Shown here piece after piece: positions 2,118-19,959 of a DNA stretch of 19,959 nucleotides. Numbering within the stretch: position 1 is the first letter of the stretch; every line of letters begins with the position of its first letter. The notes under the pieces were generated by a model. It made no database searches. It was not told the DNA's origin and saw nothing but the letters and a program-made list of their open reading frames with translations. Origin of the DNA: a virus. Made by a program: the position numbers and the translations under genes. The stretch lies in the UHGV virus genome UHGV-1722906; one strand, written 5' to 3'.

Positions 2118-3974
2118 CTATATGGTTACGCCTTTACTTATAACTCTACGGCGTCTTCTACGTATACCTGACGAGTTCTGCACATACACATTACCTCGCA
2201 TTTCCTGTTCAGCAAGCCAGTCAAAATTAGGGTTCAGAATTTCCATCGCGGCAGTTGCATAGTTACGGCAATCAAGAGGCTCGTTACGCTCGTAGACTTT
2301 CACCCACTTTTCTTTTGTCTGCCCATTTTTATATTCAAATATTTTTTTCTCTGATAATAGCCCTTTAAAATAATCAGTATCATATCCTCTGTCAGAATCT
2401 AATGGAAAATGCATATAACCAGGACCAGGATCATGTAGCTTAATTCGTGCCATGATGGTCCCTTTACCATCATCAACCCCCAAATTAAACAACATAGCAC
2501 CTACACGGTTATTATTGCTTGGCTTTCCTATAAACGGTAAACCTACCCCACCACGACCTCTGATAGAGTATATTCGCCTTGATTCTCGCGGCTTAGTAAA
2601 GCGATATACCTCTGTCGTAAAATGCCCACCAGAGTCAATACAAACGGAAGAAATCTGTAATTTTCGACCGTCACGAAATGACCAGCTACGGAGTAAGTAT
2701 TCATCAAGTTGTTTCCAGACAACATCTTGTGCGGGATCGCCCGGAAATATTTTATATTCAATCCCCCATGATTCCTTACCTTTTCCCCAACCGACCAATT
2801 CACAAACTAAATACGTGTCCTGTACGTCAACACCAGCACTTAACAATAAAACATCATCTGGTAAAAACTCTTCAAACCTTATTCTGCGTTGCAACAAGTA
2901 TTCAGGATCGATATCGTCTTTAGCATCCTCTTTCCATGGCTCACCCAGCTTAAGGTTAATAAACTCCATTAATCCATTTTTATCGCGGTTTCTGGTTGCT
3001 TCCGTAAATTCTTCAACCAGCTCTGACAATGCAACCCACGGGGAGTAAAGACTGTTAATATGAAAACCAACAATACCTTTAACTCCAGTATGTTCAGCTA
3101 TCCATACCCCCTTCGCCAACCAATCAACGTCTGGTTTACCAGATCCGCGCATAATCCCGCCGCACTCACAGCACTCATATCTGGCCGTTTCCGGTAACGC
3201 CTCACCTGAATCGCTCTTATCCCATCTGACTTGCGACCATTTCATCACCTGCATGGTGCCACAACATGGGCAAGGAACATGGTAGTAACGCTGATCGGAG
3301 AGCTTAAACCACTTGTGGATTTTGCTCGTTTCCTCCAAAACAGGAGTAGAAACAAAAACTTTCTTACGATTATGAAAGTTGGTAGTACGCTGAATACCTA
3401 GTTTTAGTGGGTCGCCCTCCTGCGTCACACCGTAACGATCAATCTCATCAGCTAACAATATTCGAATTGGCCTGGATGCAAGACCTGCTGGGGAATTAGC
3501 ACCAACAAGTGCTATATATCCACCAGCGTAATGTTTCATACGTATAGTCGTGCTGGACTTTTTGGCTGCACCGCGCCCCTCTTTCCCTTCATGCAGCTTG
3601 TGTTTCAAACCAGGGGAATATTTGAACGTCGGATCAATACGCTCTTTTGAAAAAGCCTCAGCCGCCTCTACCGTTGGATAAATCATCAACTGAGGAGATG
3701 GCTCCTGATCTGCAAAGTAACCCATAACATTTAGCTGTAATTCGGATTTACCAATTTGCGAGCTACATTGCATCACTACTGTTTCTGTATCAGCGTCACC
3801 AATAACATCCATTGGTTCACGCAAATATGGCACTCGGCTTGTACGCCACGGCCCTGGCTCTGGAGACGTTCCCGGCGCTACATGACGATACTTATCAGCC
3901 CATTCGGAAACAGTTAGCCGTGATTTAGGGCGAAGCGCACGGAAAAAAGCGGTGCTCCATACTGTTTCGCCCAT
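2118..3974 (-). CDS. Terminase large subunit (lambda gpA-like)
   Basis: 618-aa ORF with a cysteine cluster HVPCPCCG...CCECGG like the lambda gpA ACPHCG region. Lies between the small terminase and gpW-like genes. Confidence 0.9.
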   Translation of the reverse strand: MGETVWSTAFFRALRPKSRLTVSEWADKYRHVAPGTSPEPGPWRTSRVPYLREPMDVIGDADTETVVMQCSSQIGKSELQLNVMGYFADQEPSPQLMIYPTVEAAEAFSKERIDPTFKYSPGLKHKLHEGKEGRGAAKKSSTTIRMKHYAGGYIALVGANSPAGLASRPIRILLADEIDRYGVTQEGDPLKLGIQRTTNFHNRKKVFVSTPVLEETSKIHKWFKLSDQRYYHVPCPCCGTMQVMKWSQVRWDKSDSGEALPETARYECCECGGIMRGSGKPDVDWLAKGVWIAEHTGVKGIVGFHINSLYSPWVALSELVEEFTEATRNRDKNGLMEFINLKLGEPWKEDAKDDIDPEYLLQRRIRFEEFLPDDVLLLSAGVDVQDTYLVCELVGWGKGKESWGIEYKIFPGDPAQDVVWKQLDEYLLRSWSFRDGRKLQISSVCIDSGGHFTTEVYRFTKPRESRRIYSIRGRGGVGLPFIGKPSNNNRVGAMLFNLGVDDGKGTIMARIKLHDPGPGYMHFPLDSDRGYDTDYFKGLLSEKKIFEYKNGQTKEKWVKVYERNEPLDCRNYATAAMEILNPNFDWLAEQEMRGNVYVQNSSGIRRRRRRVISKGVTI

Positions 3975-8645: not shown

Positions 8646-9056
8646 TTACGCAGGGATCAAACGGAGGCAGCCGTTATTTACCTCAATACGAGAGTATTCC
8701 GGCTTACCATCAACGATTCCGGTAATGACAAGTTCGCCATCAGACGAGCATTCTTCTTTGTCGTCTTCAAGTACCGCGCCTTCTGGCAAATCAACACAGG
8801 CAAAAACAGGGCAGCCAGGATAACGATCATCTTCCATCGCAATCAGCATCGACTCACCGAACCACTCTGTGGTAGCACGGCCATCAGCCGCCTGATAGTG
8901 AATCAGATACTGGTTTTCGCCATTTGCATACTGAGCACGGGCTTGAACTTCTCCCCATTCGTCACTGATACGCATTGTTACCAGTTGGGATAATTCAAAC
9001 TTAAACGGAACAGACTCTGCACCAATGGCAATCGGTTTATCTTCTTTCTTTTCCAT
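8646..9056 (-). CDS. Strongly acidic hypothetical protein (136 aa)
   Basis: Track ORF is 8646..9125, but the ATG at 9056 is preceded by AGGTGA and lies just downstream of a terminator, so I take 9056 as the start. About 27 Asp+Glu against about 12 Lys+Arg. Confidence 0.5.
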   Translation of the reverse strand: MEKKEDKPIAIGAESVPFKFELSQLVTMRISDEWGEVQARAQYANGENQYLIHYQAADGRATTEWFGESMLIAMEDDRYPGCPVFACVDLPEGAVLEDDKEECSSDGELVITGIVDGKPEYSRIEVNNGCLRLIPA

Positions 9057-9068
9057 AACATCACCTGA

Positions 9069-9096
9069 AAATAAAAAGCCCCGCGACACCGCGAGG
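9069..9096 (-). terminator. Rho-independent terminator (GC hairpin plus U-run on the minus strand)
   Basis: Minus-strand RNA reads CCUCGCG-GUGU-CGCGGGG followed by CUUUUUAUUUU, about 10 nt after the stop of the 54-aa ORF. Confidence 0.6.
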
Positions 9097-9105
9097 CTGT
9101 AAGAG

Positions 9106-9270
9106 TTACTTTCGATAGAAATCAAGGCGCATTTGCTCCCGCTTAAGCCGAAAAGCTCTCTGCGCCACTAAGATGCGCCACAGGACACCAGCAATAACCA
9201 CCAGCGAGATACAAAAACACACGGCCACAACCATCAGAAAAATGCCAACACCATTCATGAAACTATCCAT
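9106..9270 (-). CDS. Small predicted membrane protein (about 54 aa)
   Basis: Below the ORF-track size cutoff. My translation is MDSFMNGVGIFLMVVAVCFCISLVVIAGVLWRILVAQRAFRLKREQMRLDFYRK: one hydrophobic helix then a basic tail. Followed by a terminator. Weak ribosome-binding site. Confidence 0.35.
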   Translation of the reverse strand: MDSFMNGVGIFLMVVAVCFCISLVVIAGVLWRILVAQRAFRLKREQMRLDFYRK

Positions 9271-10194: not shown

Positions 10195-10460
10195 TCATCA
10201 TCTCCTGCCGCACATACAACCTCACAAAAAACATCAGCGGAATGTTTCTCCTTGAACGAATGACGCTCAAAACCGCACTCAATATCAGGCGCAAAAACAT
10301 CCACCACATACGGTCTTTCAGAATGTTGGTTTTCCCAACGATAAACCGTAGTGACGTTGAAATGTTTTAACGCTTCACGGAACTCAACGCTGCCCGTCAG
10401 GTTTTTTGAGGTCAGGTATTGCAGGAGGTTTTTTACTACTTCACGGTCTTGTACTTTCAT
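10191..10460 (-). CDS. Hypothetical protein (89 aa)
   Basis: ORF downstream of an AT-rich promoter-like stretch (about 10540-10580), overlapping the next ORF by 4 nt. Confidence 0.5.
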   Translation of the reverse strand: MKVQDREVVKNLLQYLTSKNLTGSVEFREALKHFNVTTVYRWENQHSERPYVVDVFAPDIECGFERHSFKEKHSADVFCEVVCAAGDDE

Positions 10461-10581
10461 CGGGTTATCTCCGGTTTAACCAGGGCGGGTATCGCTCGGT
10501 TTCGGGTATAACCTTAGGAAATTTTTTCCCACCTGTAAAGCATTTTTTATATAAATATATAATTATATAATTCTATGAGCA

Positions 10582-10623: not shown

Positions 10624-10923
10624 TCAGATGTTAAACGCTATTCGTTTTCCTGTGGGAAGCTCAACATCCAGGCTTAATTTGCCTCCCATAGCTTCAACGT
10701 AACGCTTTAATGTCGCCAGCTTTAAATCATTTCCGCGCTGCTCCAGCTTTGTTACTGCTGGCTGGCTTATACCCATCGCCTCAGCAACCTGTTTTTGTGA
10801 TAACTGGAGTTCTTCACGCATCATCTGCAAGCCGACCTCAAGAATCATCTCATCTGCCATTTCTTTAATTCGCGCCTGGCTTTCAGGTGAACGGCTGGCA
10901 ATCACCTCATCTAATGTTCTCAT
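10624..10923 (-). CDS. higA: HigA-type antitoxin (XRE-family HTH)
   Basis: 99-aa ORF with HTH segment LSQKQVAEAMGISQPAVTKLEQ. Lies downstream of, and overlapping by 1 nt, a RelE/ParE-like toxin gene; toxin-first order is the HigBA pattern. Confidence 0.8.
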   Translation of the reverse strand: MRTLDEVIASRSPESQARIKEMADEMILEVGLQMMREELQLSQKQVAEAMGISQPAVTKLEQRGNDLKLATLKRYVEAMGGKLSLDVELPTGKRIAFNI

Positions 10924-11276
10924 TACTTGCTCTCCAGTGTGTTCAGATGTGCTGCAAACTCATCCTCAGCTATACGCACCAGTTTTTCATAAAACCGTTT
11001 ATCGTTACTTTTGTCTCCTGCACAAAGAACGATGGCCCGGCGAATCGGATCGAACGCATAAAAGGCTCTTATCGGACGGCCAGAAAACTGAACGCGAAGC
11101 TCTTTCATATTTTTGTACCGAGAACCTTTTACGGTATCGGCATATGGCCTGGGTAACTCAGGTCCGTAAACCTGTAGCTTTTTCAAATCAGCCAAAACCT
11201 TTTCCTGAAGAGCGTCTTCTTGCTCATTTAGCCAGTCGTCAAATCGCTGGCTAAAAAGTACCGTCCACATGCTCAA
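10923..11276 (-). CDS. higB: HigB-type toxin (RelE/ParE superfamily, addiction-module killer protein)
   Basis: 117-aa ORF (MSMWTVLFSQRFDDWL...LRVQFSGRPIRAFYAF...) resembling the HigB/Gp49-like killer family, encoded upstream of its antitoxin. Confidence 0.75.
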   Translation of the reverse strand: MSMWTVLFSQRFDDWLNEQEDALQEKVLADLKKLQVYGPELPRPYADTVKGSRYKNMKELRVQFSGRPIRAFYAFDPIRRAIVLCAGDKSNDKRFYEKLVRIAEDEFAAHLNTLESK

Positions 11277-12146: not shown

Positions 12147-12479
12147 GAAATTTACTACATTGCGTATAAGACAACTTTTCTATGTCTAATAGGAAATGAT
12201 GTTTCTTACGTTTTATCGCGTTCTGATGGCTACTGTGTGCGTATTTATCGACGTTTATTGATAAGGCTCCCCCTTCCTCCTGCAAAGCCCGGCCGTAGGC
12301 CTTATTTCGTCCTTATATAAATTGATTTTGTATAGTTCGAAACGTGCCGTTTCGAAAAGGATGATCAGGCTACTCCATGCCTCCGGCAAGTGCCGGAGGA
12401 GGTATATTTGAGCGTAGCGACTCGAACCGGCGCGAGCTTTAGCTCGCTGCAAGGGCGAACATATTCACAGGCAAAGCCT

Positions 12480-12731
12480 GCGTAAGTTAAATAAAGAAAG
12501 TTTTAATAAAAGAAAGTGATTTTGCATTTATTTGTTTAGTGCATCTATTATAAAAAACCATTTGCATATACATATCAAAACTGTGGATAACTTGATTAGT
12601 TGATACCTGTAAAGGCGATATTTTTGCTGAGTTCAGGTTTAGAGAAAATTAATTTAGCTTGTTTTTTGAACAGCTATTTTTTTGCGACGTAGATAATCCT
12701 CCGGTAAAACCGGATTCATCATTCAGGTGAG
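12480..12731. other. Candidate plasmid origin (IncFII oriR-like): AT-rich region plus a consensus DnaA box
   Basis: TGTGGATAA (reverse complement of TTATCCACA) at 12582-12590, about 145 bp downstream of the repA stop, next to an AT-rich stretch at 12480-12580. This matches the known repA-then-ori layout of IncFII replicons. Confidence 0.55.
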
Positions 12732-13580
12732 TTAATGTTGGAGTGATTTCCAGGTCTTTCTTAGCCTGTTATAACGCTGCTCAACGAGGGATCGTAAATA
12801 TGCAAGGTCAGCACCAGGATACATGCCATCAGCAAATTCCTGGCTAACCTCTCTAGTGATTTGATGACGAAGTTCGGCCTCTCCCTTTTCCTGAACAAGA
12901 CGCGCAGCTCTCTCCGCTGCTTTCTGTTTTGCCTTTATCTCTCTGGCCGTCTTCCTCTGACGCCATACATTCTCCATCTGCTCCTGAATAACAATACGCT
13001 TATAATCAGCCTCCGTTATCGCTTTTTTAAGCCGTTCGCTATTCTTCGCATTGAAGTAATTAAGTTTCTGGCTAACCGCACGTCTCCATGCTTGTTCAGT
13101 AATACCAACGGTTTCCAGCAGTTGATCACGAATCTCTATTTTCGCTGGCCAATACTGTTTATTCACCCGATCCCAGCGACGTTCATAATCAATAAAACCT
13201 AACGCTTTCAGTTGCGACAACGCCCTTGTACAGCGCGTTATAGACTTGTTCCCAGCTTCGGATACGGTAGACAGGCCGCAAAAATCAGCCAACGCCTCAG
13301 CACTAGCCAGAACCCGCTTAGAAATGATGTTTACATGGTGCAAAATCGCAGCGATCACAGCATTAATCGCCCGACGACGATGCTCGTTTATCCGGCGCTT
13401 CCGCTCTGACGGTTGATTAACGTAGAACGCAACCTCACACGTAAGATCACGCCCATTAATGCGCTGTAAAGCATCAGATAACACCAGCGGCAGCTTGTGC
13501 GTATGGTGCTTTGGAGGCTGGAACTCCGGCGACAAATTACAAACGTAAGCTGAACGTAGAGACGGCATTGGTCTATCCAT
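12732..13580 (-). CDS. repA: Plasmid replication initiator RepA (IncFII RepA1 family)
   Basis: From the ATG at 13580 (MDRPMPSLRS...) the protein is 283 aa and aligns by eye with R100/R1 RepA1 as I recall it, with RRRAINAVIAAI at the same residue positions as RRRAIDALLQGL and SITRCTRALSQLKALGFIDY against SITRATRALTFLSELGLITY. The track ORF extends to 13709, but those 43 extra codons overlie a terminator hairpin and are probably leader, not protein. Confidence 0.85.
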   Translation of the reverse strand: MDRPMPSLRSAYVCNLSPEFQPPKHHTHKLPLVLSDALQRINGRDLTCEVAFYVNQPSERKRRINEHRRRAINAVIAAILHHVNIISKRVLASAEALADFCGLSTVSEAGNKSITRCTRALSQLKALGFIDYERRWDRVNKQYWPAKIEIRDQLLETVGITEQAWRRAVSQKLNYFNAKNSERLKKAITEADYKRIVIQEQMENVWRQRKTAREIKAKQKAAERAARLVQEKGEAELRHQITREVSQEFADGMYPGADLAYLRSLVEQRYNRLRKTWKSLQH

Positions 13581-13589
13581 ATGTTCGCT

Positions 13590-13702
13590 CTTGCGTCCAC
13601 GGAAAACCAACGTATAATGGGAGTTGTCGAGGCGCCCATGGTTAATTGTTGGTTTTCCGTGGATGTCGCAAGAAGCCCGCAGATTTATCTGCGGGCTTTT
13701 TG
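13590..13702 (+). ncRNA. Candidate CopA-like antisense (countertranscript) RNA over the repA leader
   Basis: Plus-strand promoter-like TTGCGT-16-TATAAT (about 13591-13618), a long imperfect inverted repeat (13598-13615 with 13646-13663), and a perfect terminator hairpin AGCCCGCAG-ATTTA-CTGCGGGCT plus TTTTT (13674-13702). It is antisense to the repA 5' region and nothing on the plus strand is coding here. Confidence 0.4.
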
Positions 13703-13890
13703 TTTCCATATCTGGTCACTTTCCAACCAGACACCCACAATCATAACCACGTTACGTGGTTTTAAGAGAACTCTACCACAACACTTTCGGTCATGCACGA
13801 AGTCTCTCACTGATCGAACGATAATCCACCAGTAAAAGGATCTAAATTGGATCTCGTTTTGCGAGCATCATACTACTGGCCTAACTCCAG

Positions 13891-14445
13891 TCAATGATTC
13901 CCAGCCGGAAACCTGCGGTAAAGCGTGGATAAGGTAACATCGAAGATAATCGCTATCCGCTTACGTGAAACACCATTCGCAATAAGCCTTCCGATCTGTT
14001 CCCATTGCTCTGGTGCCAGCTTTGAGCGACGTCCTCCTATCCTGCCGTTAGCCCTTGCCACCGCCAATCCTGCACGCGTTCTTTCAATCATATTTTCCCG
14101 CTCCATCTCTGCGACTGCACTCAGCATCGTGTAGGCAAAGCGGCCAATTGAAGTGCTAATTTTTATCCCTTCCGTAATCGAAATAAACTCAATGTTGTTT
14201 GATAAAAAATGGTTAAGTAAATCAACAAGATGAATCAGAGAACGCCCCATTCGGTCCAGCTTCCAGACAATAACCGTATCGCCCGGCCGTAGCACCTTAA
14301 GTAGCTTATCAAGCCCTGGCCGTTTTGATTTAGCACCGGATATTTTATCTTCAAAAATCCGGTCACATCCTGAACTCCTGAGCGCCTCCAGTTGTAATTC
14401 CAAATTCTGGTCAAAAGTTGACACCCTCGCATAACCATATTGCAT
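13891..14445 (-). CDS. pin: DNA invertase, serine recombinase of the Pin/Gin/Hin/Cin family
   Basis: 184-aa ORF with N-terminal catalytic motif GYARVSTFDQ and a C-terminal HTH (IAIIFDVTLSTLYRRFP) like the Hin/Pin DNA-binding domain. Sits next to inverted tail-fibre cassettes. Confidence 0.9.
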   Translation of the reverse strand: MQYGYARVSTFDQNLELQLEALRSSGCDRIFEDKISGAKSKRPGLDKLLKVLRPGDTVIVWKLDRMGRSLIHLVDLLNHFLSNNIEFISITEGIKISTSIGRFAYTMLSAVAEMERENMIERTRAGLAVARANGRIGGRRSKLAPEQWEQIGRLIANGVSRKRIAIIFDVTLSTLYRRFPAGNH

Positions 14446-14510: not shown

Positions 14511-14536
14511 TCGCAAAAACCTCGGTTTGCAGGAAA
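14511..14536. other. gix/pix-like 26-bp site A (extra site between pin and the functional left site)
   Basis: Reverse complement reads TTCCTGCAAACC-GA-GGTTTTTGCGAA. Its left half and inner flank are identical to the right site and the start of the expressed variable segment. Core is 49 bp from site B, so out of frame with it. Confidence 0.5.
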
Positions 14537-14558
14537 CGGTAAATCAGGCTTGCCGCCG

Positions 14559-14584
14559 TTATCGAATACCTCGGTTTACGAGAA
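14559..14584. other. Left crossover site B at the start of the silent Sv' cassette
   Basis: Reverse complement reads TTCTCGTAAACC-GA-GGTATTCGATAA; the outer half and about 21 bp of flank (encoding AAVIEY) are identical to the constant side of site R. Confidence 0.65.
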
Positions 14585-15280
14585 CTCGGCACAAGCGGGG
14601 AAAAAATACCGTTACTCAGTACGGCGAATACCTGGACCAATCGACAAACATTCAGTGGTGGCCTTTCTGGGGAACTGTCCGGCAATGCCGCTACTGCAAC
14701 AAAGCTGAAAACAGCACGAAAAATTGCTGGAGTTGGTTTTGATGGTTCTAGCGATATTTCAATTAGTGCCAAAAATGTCAATGCATTTGCACTCCGACAA
14801 ACAGGTAATACTGTTAATGGTGATACTTCCGTTGGATGGAATTGGGATAGTGGTGCATATAACGCCATGATTGGTGGCGCATCTGCATTAATTCTTCACT
14901 TTAATATAAATGCTGGTAGCTGTCCTGCCGTACAATTCCGTGTGAATTATAAAAATGGTGGCATTTCCTACAGGTCAGCTCGTGATGGTTATGGATTTGA
15001 ATTAGGTTGGTCAGATTTCTATACCACGACACGAAAACCATCAGCGGGAGATGTTGGCGCATATACTAAAGCGGAATGTAATTCACGTTTTATTACAGGT
15101 GTTCGTTTAGGAGGCCTGTCATCTGTTCAAACATGGAATGGGCCTGGTTGGTCTGATAAGTCAGGTTATGTCGTTACGGGTTCAGTTAACGGAAACCGTG
15201 ATGAATTAATTGATACAACTCAGGCAAGGCCAATTCAGTATTGCATCAATGGAACGTGGTATAACGCGGGGAGTATTTAA
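14561..15280 (+). CDS. Alternative tail-fibre C-terminal cassette (Sv'-like); promoterless, no start codon, expressed only after inversion
   Basis: Frame open from site B to the stop at 15280 per the track frame (track ORF 14867..15280 is its first in-frame ATG). Translates to ...LGLRELGTSGEKIPLLSTANTW...HFNINAGSCPAVQFRVNYKNGG...IQYCINGTWYNAGSI, a typical side-tail-fibre C-terminal domain. Confidence 0.75.
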   Translation: MEYLGLRELGTSGEKIPLLSTANTWTNRQTFSGGLSGELSGNAATATKLKTARKIAGVGFDGSSDISISAKNVNAFALRQTGNTVNGDTSVGWNWDSGAYNAMIGGASALILHFNINAGSCPAVQFRVNYKNGGISYRSARDGYGFELGWSDFYTTTRKPSAGDVGAYTKAECNSRFITGVRLGGLSSVQTWNGPGWSDKSGYVVTGSVNGNRDELIDTTQARPIQYCINGTWYNAGSI

Positions 15281-15282
15281 TT

Positions 15283-15816
15283 ATGATGCACTTAAAAAAT
15301 ATTACTGCTGGCAACCCTAAAACAAAAGAGCAATACCAGCTAACGAAACAATTTAACATCAAATGGCTTTATTCAGAGGATGGAAAAAACTGGTATGAGG
15401 AACAAAAGAATTTCCAGCCAGACACTTTGAAAATGGTCTATGACCATAACGGCGTTATTATTTGTATTGAAAAGGATGTTTCAGCAATTAATCCGGAAGG
15501 CGCAAGCGTCGTTGAATTACCTGATATTACAGCAAATCGCCGTGCTGACATTTCGGGTAAATGGATGTTCAAAGATGGCGTAGTGGTAAGGCGAACTTAT
15601 ACCGAGGAAGAGCAGAGGCAGCAGGCGGAAAATGAAAAGCAAAGCCTGCTACAGCTCGTCAGGGATAAAACCCAACTATGGGACTCACAGCTACGGCTGG
15701 GCATCATTTCCGACGAGAATAAACAAAAATTAACAGAGTGGATGCTCTTTGCGCAGAAAGTCGAATCTACAGACACTTCCAGCCTGCCAGTAACGTTTCC
15801 CGAACAACCAGAATGA
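15283..15816 (+). CDS. tfa: Tail-fibre assembly protein, alternative copy (Tfa') for the silent cassette
   Basis: 177-aa ORF; N-terminus MMHLKNITAGNPKTKEQYQLTK...[13 protein letters not shown] is homologous to the opposite-strand tfa. Confidence 0.85.
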   Translation: MMHLKNITAGNPKTKEQYQLTKQFNIKWLYSEDGKNWYEEQKNFQPDTLKMVYDHNGVIICIEKDVSAINPEGASVVELPDITANRRADISGKWMFKDGVVVRRTYTEEEQRQQAENEKQSLLQLVRDKTQLWDSQLRLGIISDENKQKLTEWMLFAQKVESTDTSSLPVTFPEQPE

Positions 15817-15820
15817 GAGA

Positions 15821-15848
15821 AGGCCCGATATCGGGCCTTAATTTTTAC
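15821..15848 (+). terminator. Palindromic terminator between the convergent tfa genes
   Basis: Perfect palindrome AGGCCCGATATCGGGCCT followed by TTAATTTTTA on the plus strand. Confidence 0.55.
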
Positions 15849-16372
15849 TCTGGTTTTTGTGGCCATTCCGGCTTTGCCGTATCCACGCGGCTGACCAGAA
15901 CGCTGTAGCGTTCCCAGGCTTCCAGTCGTGTACGTTCCTCATCTGTTGCCATATTCAGCCTGACAGCGCGCTCCAGTGGCTGAATAACGCTTTCCGCTTC
16001 GGAAAGTAACGCGGCCTTTTGTGATTCGGCCTGTTGTTGCTGCTCGTCTGCCGTATAAATCCGTTTAACTACAGATCCGTCCTTAAACATCCACTTACCG
16101 GAATCATCGGCCCGACGATTGGCTGTTATATCGGGGACCTCAACGACGCTAAAACCTTCAGGGTTAAGCGTGGAGGCATCTTTAGTTATGGCAACAATAA
16201 TATTATGTTCATCGTAAACAATCTTTATTGTGTCTTCCTGAAAATTCTTTACCTCTTCATACCAGTTTTTTCCGTCTTCGGACCACAACCAGATAACGTC
16301 AAAATTCTTTGTTAATTCGTACTGTTCCAGTGTTTTAGCGTTACCAGCTTTAATGTTCTTTAAGTGCATCAT
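15845..16372 (-). CDS. tfa: Tail-fibre assembly protein (Tfa) for the currently expressed fibre
   Basis: 175-aa ORF 1 nt downstream of the tail-fibre stop, with the conserved Tfa N-terminus [22 protein letters not shown]. Confidence 0.85.
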
Positions 16373-16373
16373 A

Positions 16374-18986
16374 TTAAACGCTCGCTACATTATACCAGGT
16401 GCCATTTATATACTTTTGAATCGGTCTGTAATAAACACCCGCAATATTATCGGCAGAATTGGAACCTGTATCCTGAACATTAATACCAGACAATACATGA
16501 CCTGACGGGCACTGGAAATTCCATGTTTGCCAGTTGTTTACACCATAATATTGCTGTGAGCCAAGCCGAACATCCTTTACATATCGGGAATCAATGTTAC
16601 CCCAATTGCTTGGTTGTATCTGACCGTTTACAGCAAATATCACCGAGTTATCTGTATTCCGCTGACTATAGAAATGCCAGCCTGAATCATCACCAAGCTC
16701 TGCAACAGTTGGTCTTGACGAATTTCCCCACAAGTTAAATGATGCATTACGGGCAGAGTTATTTGCACTTGCAAGAGTGAATAACTTACTTTCCCCAGCT
16801 TGAATACCCTTTAATGATATTGCTGAACCATTTCTAAAGCGGAATACATGCACACCATTAGCATAAGCATCCAGCACCCCATCACCATTTTGTTTAAACC
16901 CGGTATCGTTATCTCCTAAAACTATTGAATTGCCACCCAGGGCATTAGCCGTTCCAATCCCCAGATTTCCGCTAAAAATGGCATTAATACCGAATATTGA
17001 GTGAGAACAATAAAACCCTCGTCCATTGTTAAAATCCAGAATGGTCTGTACATTTGTGCTTTCTGTCGCGGGATTAGTTGCCCCCCACTTATATCTTGTT
17101 TGATCGATAGTATAATCCTGTGTTGGAACAATAACAGTTAGTCCTTCTTCAGCAAGAATCCGCACAGGAAAAGCCCTGCCTTCAATGTAAAAAACGCTGC
17201 ATACATCATCTTCTTTCATGCTTGTAACGATAGAATGGATTGCGCGTTCATTAGACTGATACGTCGAAAAATAACCTGCCGCATATGAACCACGATCAGT
17301 CCAGCCACCAGGCATTACCATTCCATTGAATTCGCAGTTATTCATTGCGTAATCACCACTGGCAGATGTGGTCGTTATAATCACTCTGGAAGCCAGCTCG
17401 CCAGTGCTGCCTGTGGAACGCCGGAAAATAACTGGATACCACTTTCCACCAACTGCATTAGACGGCGCATTAAATGCGTACTGCCGCATTCCTTTTTTCT
17501 TATCCACCTCGCCTTTGCTGTAAACATTAATGTTACTCAGGAAGCGACCCTTATCAGGAATATCCGCGCCGTTCTGGTTTTTTTGTAATGCGCCAGAAGC
17601 CTGATTTACCGTTTCCTGCAAACCGAGGTATTCGATAACGGCGGCAACGGTCGATTTCGCAAGAATATCCCGCCCGACTTTTGTCAGAGTTGCCAGGCTG
17701 GCGACATCATTCCCCGTAAAATACGGAAACCTGTCTGCCGCAGTGGCAAGCCCGGCCAGTGCGCTCAGCGTGTTGTCTTTCGGTTGCTTACCCGCAAGCG
17801 CGTTAGTCATGGTGGTCGCAAAATTCGGGTCGTTGCCCAACGCCGCAGCCAGCTCGTTCAGCGTATTCAGTGCGTCAGGCGACGAGTCCACGAGGGCAGC
17901 GATCGCAGCCATAACATAAGCCGTGCTTGCGATCTGAGTATTGTTAGTACCTTTTGGCGCAGTTGGTGTTGTTGGTGTTCCGGTCAGCGCCGGACTGTTC
18001 AGGGGCGCTTTCTTGTTCGTTTCATCCATTACCACCTTTACAGCTTTCGATGTCGCGGCCAGTGTTTCAGACGTGCTGTTGGTGGCACTACTGAGCTGAG
18101 TTATTCCCCTTACAGTCAGTGAAGCTACAGGCACATTTGTTATCTGCGCCCACGAATGCGTGTGATTGGACGGAGCCTTTCCGGCCGCAAGATCATACGC
18201 TGCCTTAACAGCCTTTGGTGTTGCTGCCAGCGTTTCAGACGTGCTGTTGGTGGCACTACTGAGCTGAACAATCCCTTTTCGCGCTGTGGTAGCGTCCTGT
18301 GCGGTGTATTTAGCGTTAGCCAGGTCATATGCTGCCTTAACAGCCTTAGGCGTCGCAGCAAGCATTTCAGACGTGCTATTGGTGGCGCTGCTAAGTTGAA
18401 CAAAGCCTTTTGAGGTTAAAGTTGCATCAGGATGATTACGTGATTGCTCATGTTTCACAATGGCTTGCTTAAGCCGCTTTGCTGAAACAGCAAGGGAATC
18501 ATCTGTACCTGCATCAATTTCTTGTTCATTAGCAAATCTTGCCACCCCAACAACAGTTTCGGTCGCGGGAGGATTAATAAACTCAATATCACCAAATGTA
18601 ATATTTTTAGTATCAAGAGTTTTAATTGCTATATCACTTGATATTAAAGCGATAGTAGATGATGCTTTATTTATTATTGCTTGTTCTTGTGAGTATACAG
18701 CAAACAACGTACCCTTATTCGTATACAATCCTATTGTATGGACAACATACTCATCTTTACTATCATCCTTCGCTGTTACATGAATTGTATCAGGGGAAAC
18801 AACTTTGCCACCTATTGTGGTAAGTCGTTTTATTTCGTTTGTTATATTTGTTTGTGAAGTTGACGTGACATAATATCTACTACCTAAACCAACAGAAACA
18901 ATCTCAACTTTATTTGTTCCTGTTTTGTTGGCATTAACCAGCTCCTGACGCCCGGCGTCAGTCATCGTAAATAATAATTTACTCAC
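16374..18986 (-). CDS. Side tail-fibre protein (constant N-terminal part plus currently expressed variable C-terminal part)
   Basis: 870-aa ORF with three copies of the repeat [11 protein letters not shown][TM]LAAT[PS]KAVK and C-terminal motif [13 protein letters not shown]. Contains crossover site R at residues 448-458. Confidence 0.9.
17613..17638. other. Right crossover site R inside the tail-fibre gene (constant/variable junction)
   Basis: TTCCTGCAAACC-GA-GGTATTCGATAA on the plus strand, closely matching the Mu gix consensus as I recall it. Encodes [11 protein letters not shown] at tail-fibre residues 448-458; inverted relative to sites A and B. Confidence 0.7.
18029..18400. repeat. Three tandem intragenic repeats (about 130 bp each) encoding the tail-fibre repeat motif
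   Basis: Near-identical stretches containing GTTTCAGACGTGCTGTTGGTGGCACTACTGAGCTGA recur three times, corresponding to tail-fibre residues about 197-320. Confidence 0.6.
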
Positions 18987-19016
18987 GCTTAATTCCTTGA
19001 ATAAACAAATTGCGAA

Positions 19017-19590
19017 TTAGCACTCGCCAATTAATCGTATATAAGACACAGGCTGACAAGCACCAACAATACCGACACCACCAGAAACATCGGCAGCTTG
19101 CGAAAATGTAAATAATGTTCTTGCCGACTTTGCGCTCTTGATACTTCTTAACGTATCTTCCAGCATCTCTTTCGAAGGAACGGCACCATCAAAAGAGTTA
19201 ATCGAAGCAACAATTGAGGCCGTATATGGTTCGCCAGGTGGTGATGTTTCAAACCATTCTGTTATGTTTACCTCTCCACCCAAGCTATTTACTACATCTT
19301 CAACCGCTGCCCTTGTACCCTTTATTCGCTTTGTTCGTATTATTGATTTAAAAACAGAACGATACAGGCCAACTATCCCTCCATGTATCAGCATTCCATT
19401 GCCAAGCTAAATGATCGAGAACAACTGAGTCCAGGTTATCAACAACGCTATATATTTCTGTCTTATATATTAAATTGTTAATTGCTTGTAGTTCATCATC
19501 AATAGCTTTCGACATAGCTATCACGTTGGGATCTCTAGCTAAGTTAGGAGGTAAAACATCCAACAAGCTAACATTAAAGATATCAGCCAT
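19017..19590 (-). pseudogene. Tail protein I-like (P2 gpI / e14 YmfQ family) split by an apparent frameshift
   Basis: Two overlapping track ORFs (19348..19590 and 19017..19394) are colinear with a single P2 gpI-type protein: the first ends ...LAWQWNADTWRDSWP and the second carries ...KRIKGTRAAVEDVVNSLGGEVNITEWFETSPPG, like P2 gpI VNVTEWWENSDPPG. The frame change lies near 19350-19390, next to an A5/T5 run. Confidence 0.55.
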
Positions 19591-19959
19591 CCTCTAACCC
19601 CGCATACTGGCAATTTATATTTCTCTCTCTGGCGACCTGCGTCTCTCCAACTACAGTAAATACAGGACTTGATATTTCTAATCTTTTAGCCCCGGCATTT
19701 TTTAAACGTTGAATAATTTCATCTGGATTTATATCTCTTCCCATAACCGAACGTTGCCATTGTTTATACTCATCAAGAGCTTTCTCAACCTCACTTTGAA
19801 TTAACGTTGTTCTGTTTTTGTCCGATGAGTTAATCCAGTATTTAATTATTATATCGTATTCAATGCTCTCTGGTTTCTTAACAAGAACTTTATCTGTGAA
19901 TGGTCGAATATTAGTTGCAGAGAGAACGCTATTTATCTGCTCTAATAGTTCATCAGAAG
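19583..19959 (-). CDS. Baseplate protein J-like, C-terminal part (partial; gene runs past the window end)
   Basis: Minus-strand frame open from the window edge to a TGA that overlaps the gpI-like start. My translation ends ...EIIQRLKNAGAKRLEISSPVFTVVGETQVARERNINCQYAGLEDG. Position upstream of gpI-like and the tail fibre matches P2/e14 order; assignment is by synteny. Confidence 0.45.
   Translation of the reverse strand, partial: SDELLEQINSVLSATNIRPFTDKVLVKKPESIEYDIIIKYWINSSDKNRTTLIQSEVEKALDEYKQWQRSVMGRDINPDEIIQRLKNAGAKRLEISSPVFTVVGETQVARERNINCQYAGLEDG

Follow-up and report, generated by a model that had tools for sequence, protein, structure and literature searches.

A probable recent 8-nt slippage deletion splits the P2 gpI-type tail gene in a contig of a common E. 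coli phage-plasmid family

Why does a tail gene of the virus contig UHGV-1722906 run in two reading frames, and does the break exist in the DNA molecule or just in its assembly? The window analysed here is the whole stretch of 19,959 nt, and the features that bear on this question are collected in Table 1. An earlier note, made from the sequence alone, had described a gpI-type tail (baseplate) gene split by a single frameshift, with both halves otherwise intact and colinear with gpI. Our results support this description: the halves match consecutive parts of the Tail_P2_I profile, and one 8-nt gap is the sole indel relative to the intact genes.

Table 1. Features at and around the split gpI-type gene (window positions).
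Feature	Position	Strand	Remarks
N-terminal gpI-type fragment	19348..19590	minus	80 aa; 77 native residues, then F-C-F, TAA at 19350-19348
C-terminal gpI-type fragment	19017..19394	minus	125 aa; homologous part ~19361 (R80) to 19017
Retained CGTT copy (deletion junction)	19358..19361	minus	placement ambiguous within 19357-19362
T5 homopolymer	19350..19354	minus	inside the ORF overlap; 8-nt gap ~4-8 nt upstream
Baseplate J/gp47-family gene, 3' end	19583..19959	minus	runs off the window
Tail fibre gene, intact	16374..18986	minus	870 aa; PF03406 Phage_fiber_2; directly downstream of the broken gpI

The two fragments share 47 nt (19348-19394), the second being shifted to the +1 frame with respect to the first, and ATG 19394 marks no more than the mechanical start of the C-terminal ORF. 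When compared with PF09684 (Tail_P2_I), for which the Pfam gathering cut-off is 20.6 bits, the N-terminal fragment matched profile positions 6-57 (E 4e-5, 23.9 bits) and the C-terminal fragment positions 62-139 (E 7e-15, 55.6 bits), each half clearing the cut-off alone; the intact orthologue matched positions 7-138 (E 4e-27, 95.3 bits). Since both halves score above the Pfam threshold and cover consecutive parts of the profile, their likeness to a gpI-type protein is far beyond chance and colinear with it. At the amino acid level, the N-terminal fragment is 98.7% identical to residues 1-78 of the intact protein of plasmid p48, and the C-terminal fragment aligns with residues 76-193 of the same protein (tblastn). 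The window holds no uninterrupted frame for the whole Tail_P2_I domain, as a stop follows codon 80. The gene is a frameshifted pseudogene of the Tail_P2_I (P2 gpI-type baseplate wedge) family.

The surroundings of the gene are those of this family. The broken gpI is located between the end of the J gene at 19583 and the start of the fibre gene at 18986; the J stop codon overlaps the gpI start codon (ATGGCTGA), and the order J - gpI - fibre is the same in p48 and in phage vB_YpM_41. P2 gpI and the R2 pyocin protein Tri2 (PA0619) belong to the same family, PF09684, as the window gene, and in their systems the genes follow the order J - I - fibre H - fibre assembly with an overlap of the J stop and the I start, as in the window. 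Moreover, residues 52-153 of the intact orthologue align with Tri2 PA0619 in the solved structure of the R2 pyocin baseplate (PDB 6u5b/6u5k; E 8.7e-11). In contrast to P2 gpI and Tri2, the frame in the window is broken after residue 77; the intact version in the phage-plasmid family has 193 aa, compared to 177 aa for PA0619.

Comparison with intact orthologous genes, which the earlier note had suggested, located the lesion directly as a single 8-nt gap. This gap was the only indel in a 582-column alignment with the genes of p48 (NZ_CP023368.1) and vB_YpM_41, and blastn agreed. The intact genes read CCTGTAT-CGTT-AAAG-CGTT-CTGTTTTTAAA, whereas the window reads CCTGTAT-CGTT-CTGTTTTTAAA; the relatives have the full CGTTAAAGCGTT, from which the window lacks 8 nt, and the deletion allele is GTATCGTTCTG, compared to GTATCGTTAAAGCGTTCTG in the intact allele. 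The missing nucleotides correspond to one CGTT copy plus the 4-nt spacer AAAG, and are bounded by 4-bp direct repeats. In the protein, the wild-type residues W74 P75 V76 S77 L78 K79 R80 S81 V82 F83 K84 are replaced in the window by W P V S F C F and a stop.

The frame change had been placed next to a five-base homopolymer, and it is true that the T5 run sits in the 47-nt overlap of both ORFs, a position that would suit a homopolymer-length miscall. The frame does not change at the T5 run, however. Its length is the same in the window and in the intact orthologues, where the only indel is the 8-nt gap upstream, and therefore the run is not the cause of the frame change. Furthermore, the 81 nt round the site are otherwise identical in 47 of the 59 PLSDB records and in 54 of the 71 E. 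coli relatives. The alignment thus refutes a miscall at T5, to which we give practically no credence, and the lesion is instead the 8-nt deletion between the CGTT direct repeats. Note that a homopolymer near a frame change need not be the lesion, and that alignment with an intact orthologue finds it.

Loss of one repeat copy together with the spacer, while the other copy is kept, is the classical signature of replication slippage. From this signature in the sequence, we infer that the deletion arose by slipped-strand mispairing, in which one CGTT copy and the AAAG spacer would have been lost during replication. The window shares this pattern with the slipped-strand deletions that make phage and prophage pseudogenes, and nothing sets it apart from them in general. 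Because the junction was not found elsewhere, the event is a private one, not a recurrent hotspot.

How the deletion is distributed was assessed with window positions 18900-19959 (1060 bases) as the megablast query. At 96-99% identity, this query matched 71 complete E. coli genomes and five phage records, namely Yersinia phages vB_YpM_39/41/44 and Escherichia phages vB_EcoM-613R2/473R2. All 73 places in the 71 E. coli genomes were on plasmids, mostly of ~48 kb, and none was chromosomal. Among the matches listed, every subject span was 1068 bases, compared to the 1060 bases of the query. The relatives carry one ORF of 582 nt that encodes 193 aa and is annotated as 'phage tail protein I'. Thus, in the 48-kb E. 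coli phage-plasmids (p48 and the 48.5-kb plasmid of ATCC 25922, for example) and in the Yersinia phages, whose tail modules show 96-99% DNA identity, the orthologue is a single 582-nt frame, of which the window lacks 8 nt. With an 81-nt query across the junction, the best identity among 59 PLSDB and 71 E. coli records was 91.0%; since this value equals 81/89, the 8-nt gap is the only difference.

The deletion allele was absent from the 71 E. coli plasmids, the 59 PLSDB plasmids and the five phages, and the exact 36-nt junction gave no match in species-representative genomes or in IMG/VR. One match was obtained in a metagenome collection, OLRK01002883.1. A look-up of the exact 80-aa fragment showed that this contig is ENA ERZ1742772 NODE_2883_length_9931_cov_2.77, assembled with SPAdes, and returned in addition a 2385-nt scaffold, ENA ERZ28577955 (FENG15-1_SAMEA3136736_METAG-scaffold_11170). 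As exact proteins, both gpI fragments were found only on those two ENA contigs. Over the length that each shares with the window, the two contigs show 100% identity to it, and like it they end at position 19959, inside the J gene; one of the two, L006, stops in addition close to the inversion site (17575). The complete identity and the common end base indicate that the three contigs probably derive from one read set, and so provide no independent confirmation of each other. The shared end at 19959 points to a single read set of low coverage, in which a coverage gap or a graph branch occurs at this point.

If the deletion is a mutation, it is a young one. Restoring the 8 nt yields a 193-aa protein exactly equal to P0121, the commonest intact allele, which is recorded on 171 contigs (NCBI, JGI, Logan, ENA, UniRef). 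In addition, all 22 of the other p48 proteins compared were present at full length in the window (tblastn), nearly all of them with 98-100% amino acid identity; lower values were seen for the recombinant tail-fibre-assembly and variable-region proteins. The fact that the repaired gene is the commonest allele, together with the undamaged state of the other compared genes, points to a recent and isolated lesion. General decay of the element is rejected on account of these 22 intact genes. The earlier note had posed a recent inactivating mutation against an assembly error. The choice of alternatives was correct, and the recency of the event is borne out by the exact return to P0121; between the two, the mutation is favoured and the artefact is kept at lower confidence.

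Broken or fused calls of the J and gpI genes were also seen in other members of the family (P0140, P0137, P0158 and P0155), among them a J-I fusion of 333 aa and, in E. coli DEC6A, a C-terminal gpI piece of 88 aa encoded on a contig of 47.7 kb. This variety of broken calls shows that lesions or sequencing errors in the gene pair recur sporadically.

Could the deletion have been created at the level of the reads or the library, by polymerase slippage in PCR or by a consensus built on very few reads, the real molecule being intact? The k-mer coverage reported by SPAdes is only 2.77, which implies that few reads stand behind the junction, and the deletion allele is restricted to contigs that resemble re-assemblies of one sample. 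Moreover, the window contig carries at least one other probable assembly fault, a misjoin at a 122-bp repeat, and its assembly is thus not error-free. Against these points, an 8-nt deletion is atypical of short-read error, collapse of a repeat of 4 nt in a de Bruijn graph is impossible at the usual k, and the microhomology matches what is expected from slippage in vivo. The same consensus was also obtained from at least two differently named pipelines as well as in the window's own contig, and the presence of the deletion both in a SPAdes contig and in a differently named scaffold means that it is not assembler-specific. On balance, we consider such an artefact unlikely, at odds that still deserve attention.

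The second fault was characterised by comparison with p48, with which the window is colinear except at four points, among them the junction at 10457-10578, the inverted fibre segment and a few small intergenic indels. Positions 10457-10578 correspond to a 122-bp direct repeat of which p48 has three copies (2992-3113, 12462-12589 and 19476-19597). Here p48 position 19476 is followed in the window by position 3113; the missing 16.4 kb encode ParA, an XRE repressor, Rha, Ref, holins, lysin, tRNA-Ile and an MT-A70 methyltransferase. In the sister contig L005, apparently from the same sample, the repeat is followed by the normal flank (p48 3114-3536), and all ten relatives examined have the normal gene order at the repeat. 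For these two reasons, the join is probably a repeat-induced misassembly, and at most a deletion in a subpopulation. These departures from p48 leave the conclusion about gpI untouched.

Taken as a genuine change, the deletion could in principle be compensated in translation. After the loss of the 8 nt, the T5 run reads U-UUU-UAA, immediately before the new stop, an arrangement that fits the 'shifty stop' configuration as defined in PMC3082878. At the U-UUU-UAA-A sequence, in some ribosomes, the peptidyl-tRNA-Phe would re-pair one base forward, from UUU to UUU, and the resulting +1 slip would give a partly functional gpI of 190 aa, the indel being in effect of the 'savior' type. As computed, such a slip restores the frame exactly (...WPVS-FCF-KSIIRTKRIKGT...), and there are documented cases both of shifty stops and of frameshifting that compensates for indels (PMC3082878; PMC5009743). 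The site also resembles the prfB-type +1 sites in that the P-site UUU re-pairs perfectly in the +1 frame and a stop follows. Unlike them, it lacks a properly spaced Shine-Dalgarno stimulator (at prfB the spacing is ~3 nt upstream, while the nearest GGAGGG here is ~24 nt upstream), is unconserved, and is an accidental product of the deletion: the two-frame arrangement is present in no relative, all of which have one frame. In the slip product, L78-K79-R80-S81-V82-F83 would be replaced by F-C-F. This removes K79, invariant among 22 aligned homologues with identities down to 32%, and R80, conserved in more than 90% of them, from a stretch (residues 76-89) that AlphaFold predicts as helical in the intact protein with low confidence (mean pLDDT 57). 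Finally, each wedge requires one copy of this structural protein, whose synthesis would depend on the basal slip rate, presumably a low one. We regard both the compensated indel and the re-pairing on which it depends as very improbable. Were they real, virion production would be strongly attenuated and not dead, and the site would act as a leaky switch towards plasmid life.

A functional split gene, with the halves translated separately by re-initiation at or near ATG 19394 and both chains entering the wedge, would suit the otherwise undamaged state of the two ORFs and the location of the second ATG upstream of the first stop. Every relative, however, encodes a single gpI chain, and the break falls within the predicted helix and takes away the invariant K79. 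An internal promoter-like site or a Shine-Dalgarno-like sequence for the second half was looked for and none was found, the latter including the stretch ahead of ATG 19394. We find this arrangement hardly credible.

Our preferred reading, to which we assign a probability of about 0.8, is therefore a very recent 8-nt slippage deletion in the gpI gene of a phage-plasmid, genuine and expected to be a null allele. The loss of 8 nt shifts the frame by +1, and translation would end after 77 native residues plus F-C-F, so that L78 to C193 would not be made; this part comprises K79 and R80 as well as the C-terminal end and the greater part of the Tail_P2_I domain. A wedge of the P2 baseplate consists of two gpJ and one gpI, and the C-terminus of gpI tethers the fibre gpH (cryo-EM preprint 10.64898/2026.09.14.750843). 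By analogy, gpI is expected to tether the product of the window's fibre gene to the baseplate. Homology therefore suggests that the truncated gpI would have lost its function: the allele would provide no functional baseplate or fibre attachment and no infectious particles would be formed, while plasmid maintenance would be untouched.

The appropriate annotation is accordingly one frameshifted 'phage tail protein I' pseudogene (8-nt deletion) in place of two hypothetical proteins, and counts of complete, viable phages should leave the contig out. A real deletion would represent a small example of a phage-plasmid that loses a virion function and stays a plasmid. The literature on phage-plasmids already recognises defective elements of this kind (PMC12977533). 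Nothing here is new in kind: the gene family is known, the phage-plasmid lineage is common and sequenced, and the mechanism is a textbook one.

As for the element itself, it belongs to a common ~48-kb E. coli phage-plasmid family, and the window covers a portion of it. Members of this family combine an IncFII-type RepA and ParB with a P2-like contractile tail module. Structural genes and replication or partition genes, which together on one extrachromosomal replicon define a phage-plasmid, are both present: p48 carries RepA, ParA and ParB as well as terminase, portal, capsid, sheath and baseplate genes, and in the window IncFII_repA and ParB occur alongside terminase, portal and tail genes. 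The name pSLy3 was considered as a source for naming the family and rejected, because pSLy3 belongs to the SSU5 supergroup.

Several other features of the element were observed. Two 36-nt inverted repeats (14516-14551 and 17597-17632; 97% complementary, TTCCTGCAAACCGAGG...), which we take to resemble gix/cix, bound an invertible segment of ~3 kb (14550-17600). This segment encodes alternative C-termini of the tail fibre, contains two fibre-assembly genes in opposed orientations, and is adjoined by an invertase gene (13891-14445, minus strand) encoding a 184-aa serine recombinase (Resolvase + HTH_7). Its orientation in the window is opposite to that in p48, giving a fibre of 870 aa compared to 689 aa. 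The fibre gene also contains repeats of ~65 nt (18035-18099, 18203-18267 and 18319-18411), in which a shaft protein motif occurs three times.

Between the invertase gene and repA, upstream of the annotated RepA start, the window differs from p48 by a 5-nt indel at ~13658 in a TTTCC-TTTCC tandem. This is another slippage-type polymorphism, possibly located in an IncFII-type replication control region. The longest repA ORF in the window has 325 aa (12732-13709), compared to the 282 aa annotated in p48. At 9037-9127, the window has 91 nt in place of 373 nt of p48 (20927-21299), where a remnant of a tail-fibre-assembly gene is found, and the small ORFs round this site vary among relatives. Finally, beside the replication region (10627-11270, minus strand), the window encodes a toxin-antitoxin pair, namely a RelE/ParE-type toxin of 115 aa from the Gp49 family and an HTH antitoxin of 99 aa, both intact and 99-100% identical to those of p48.
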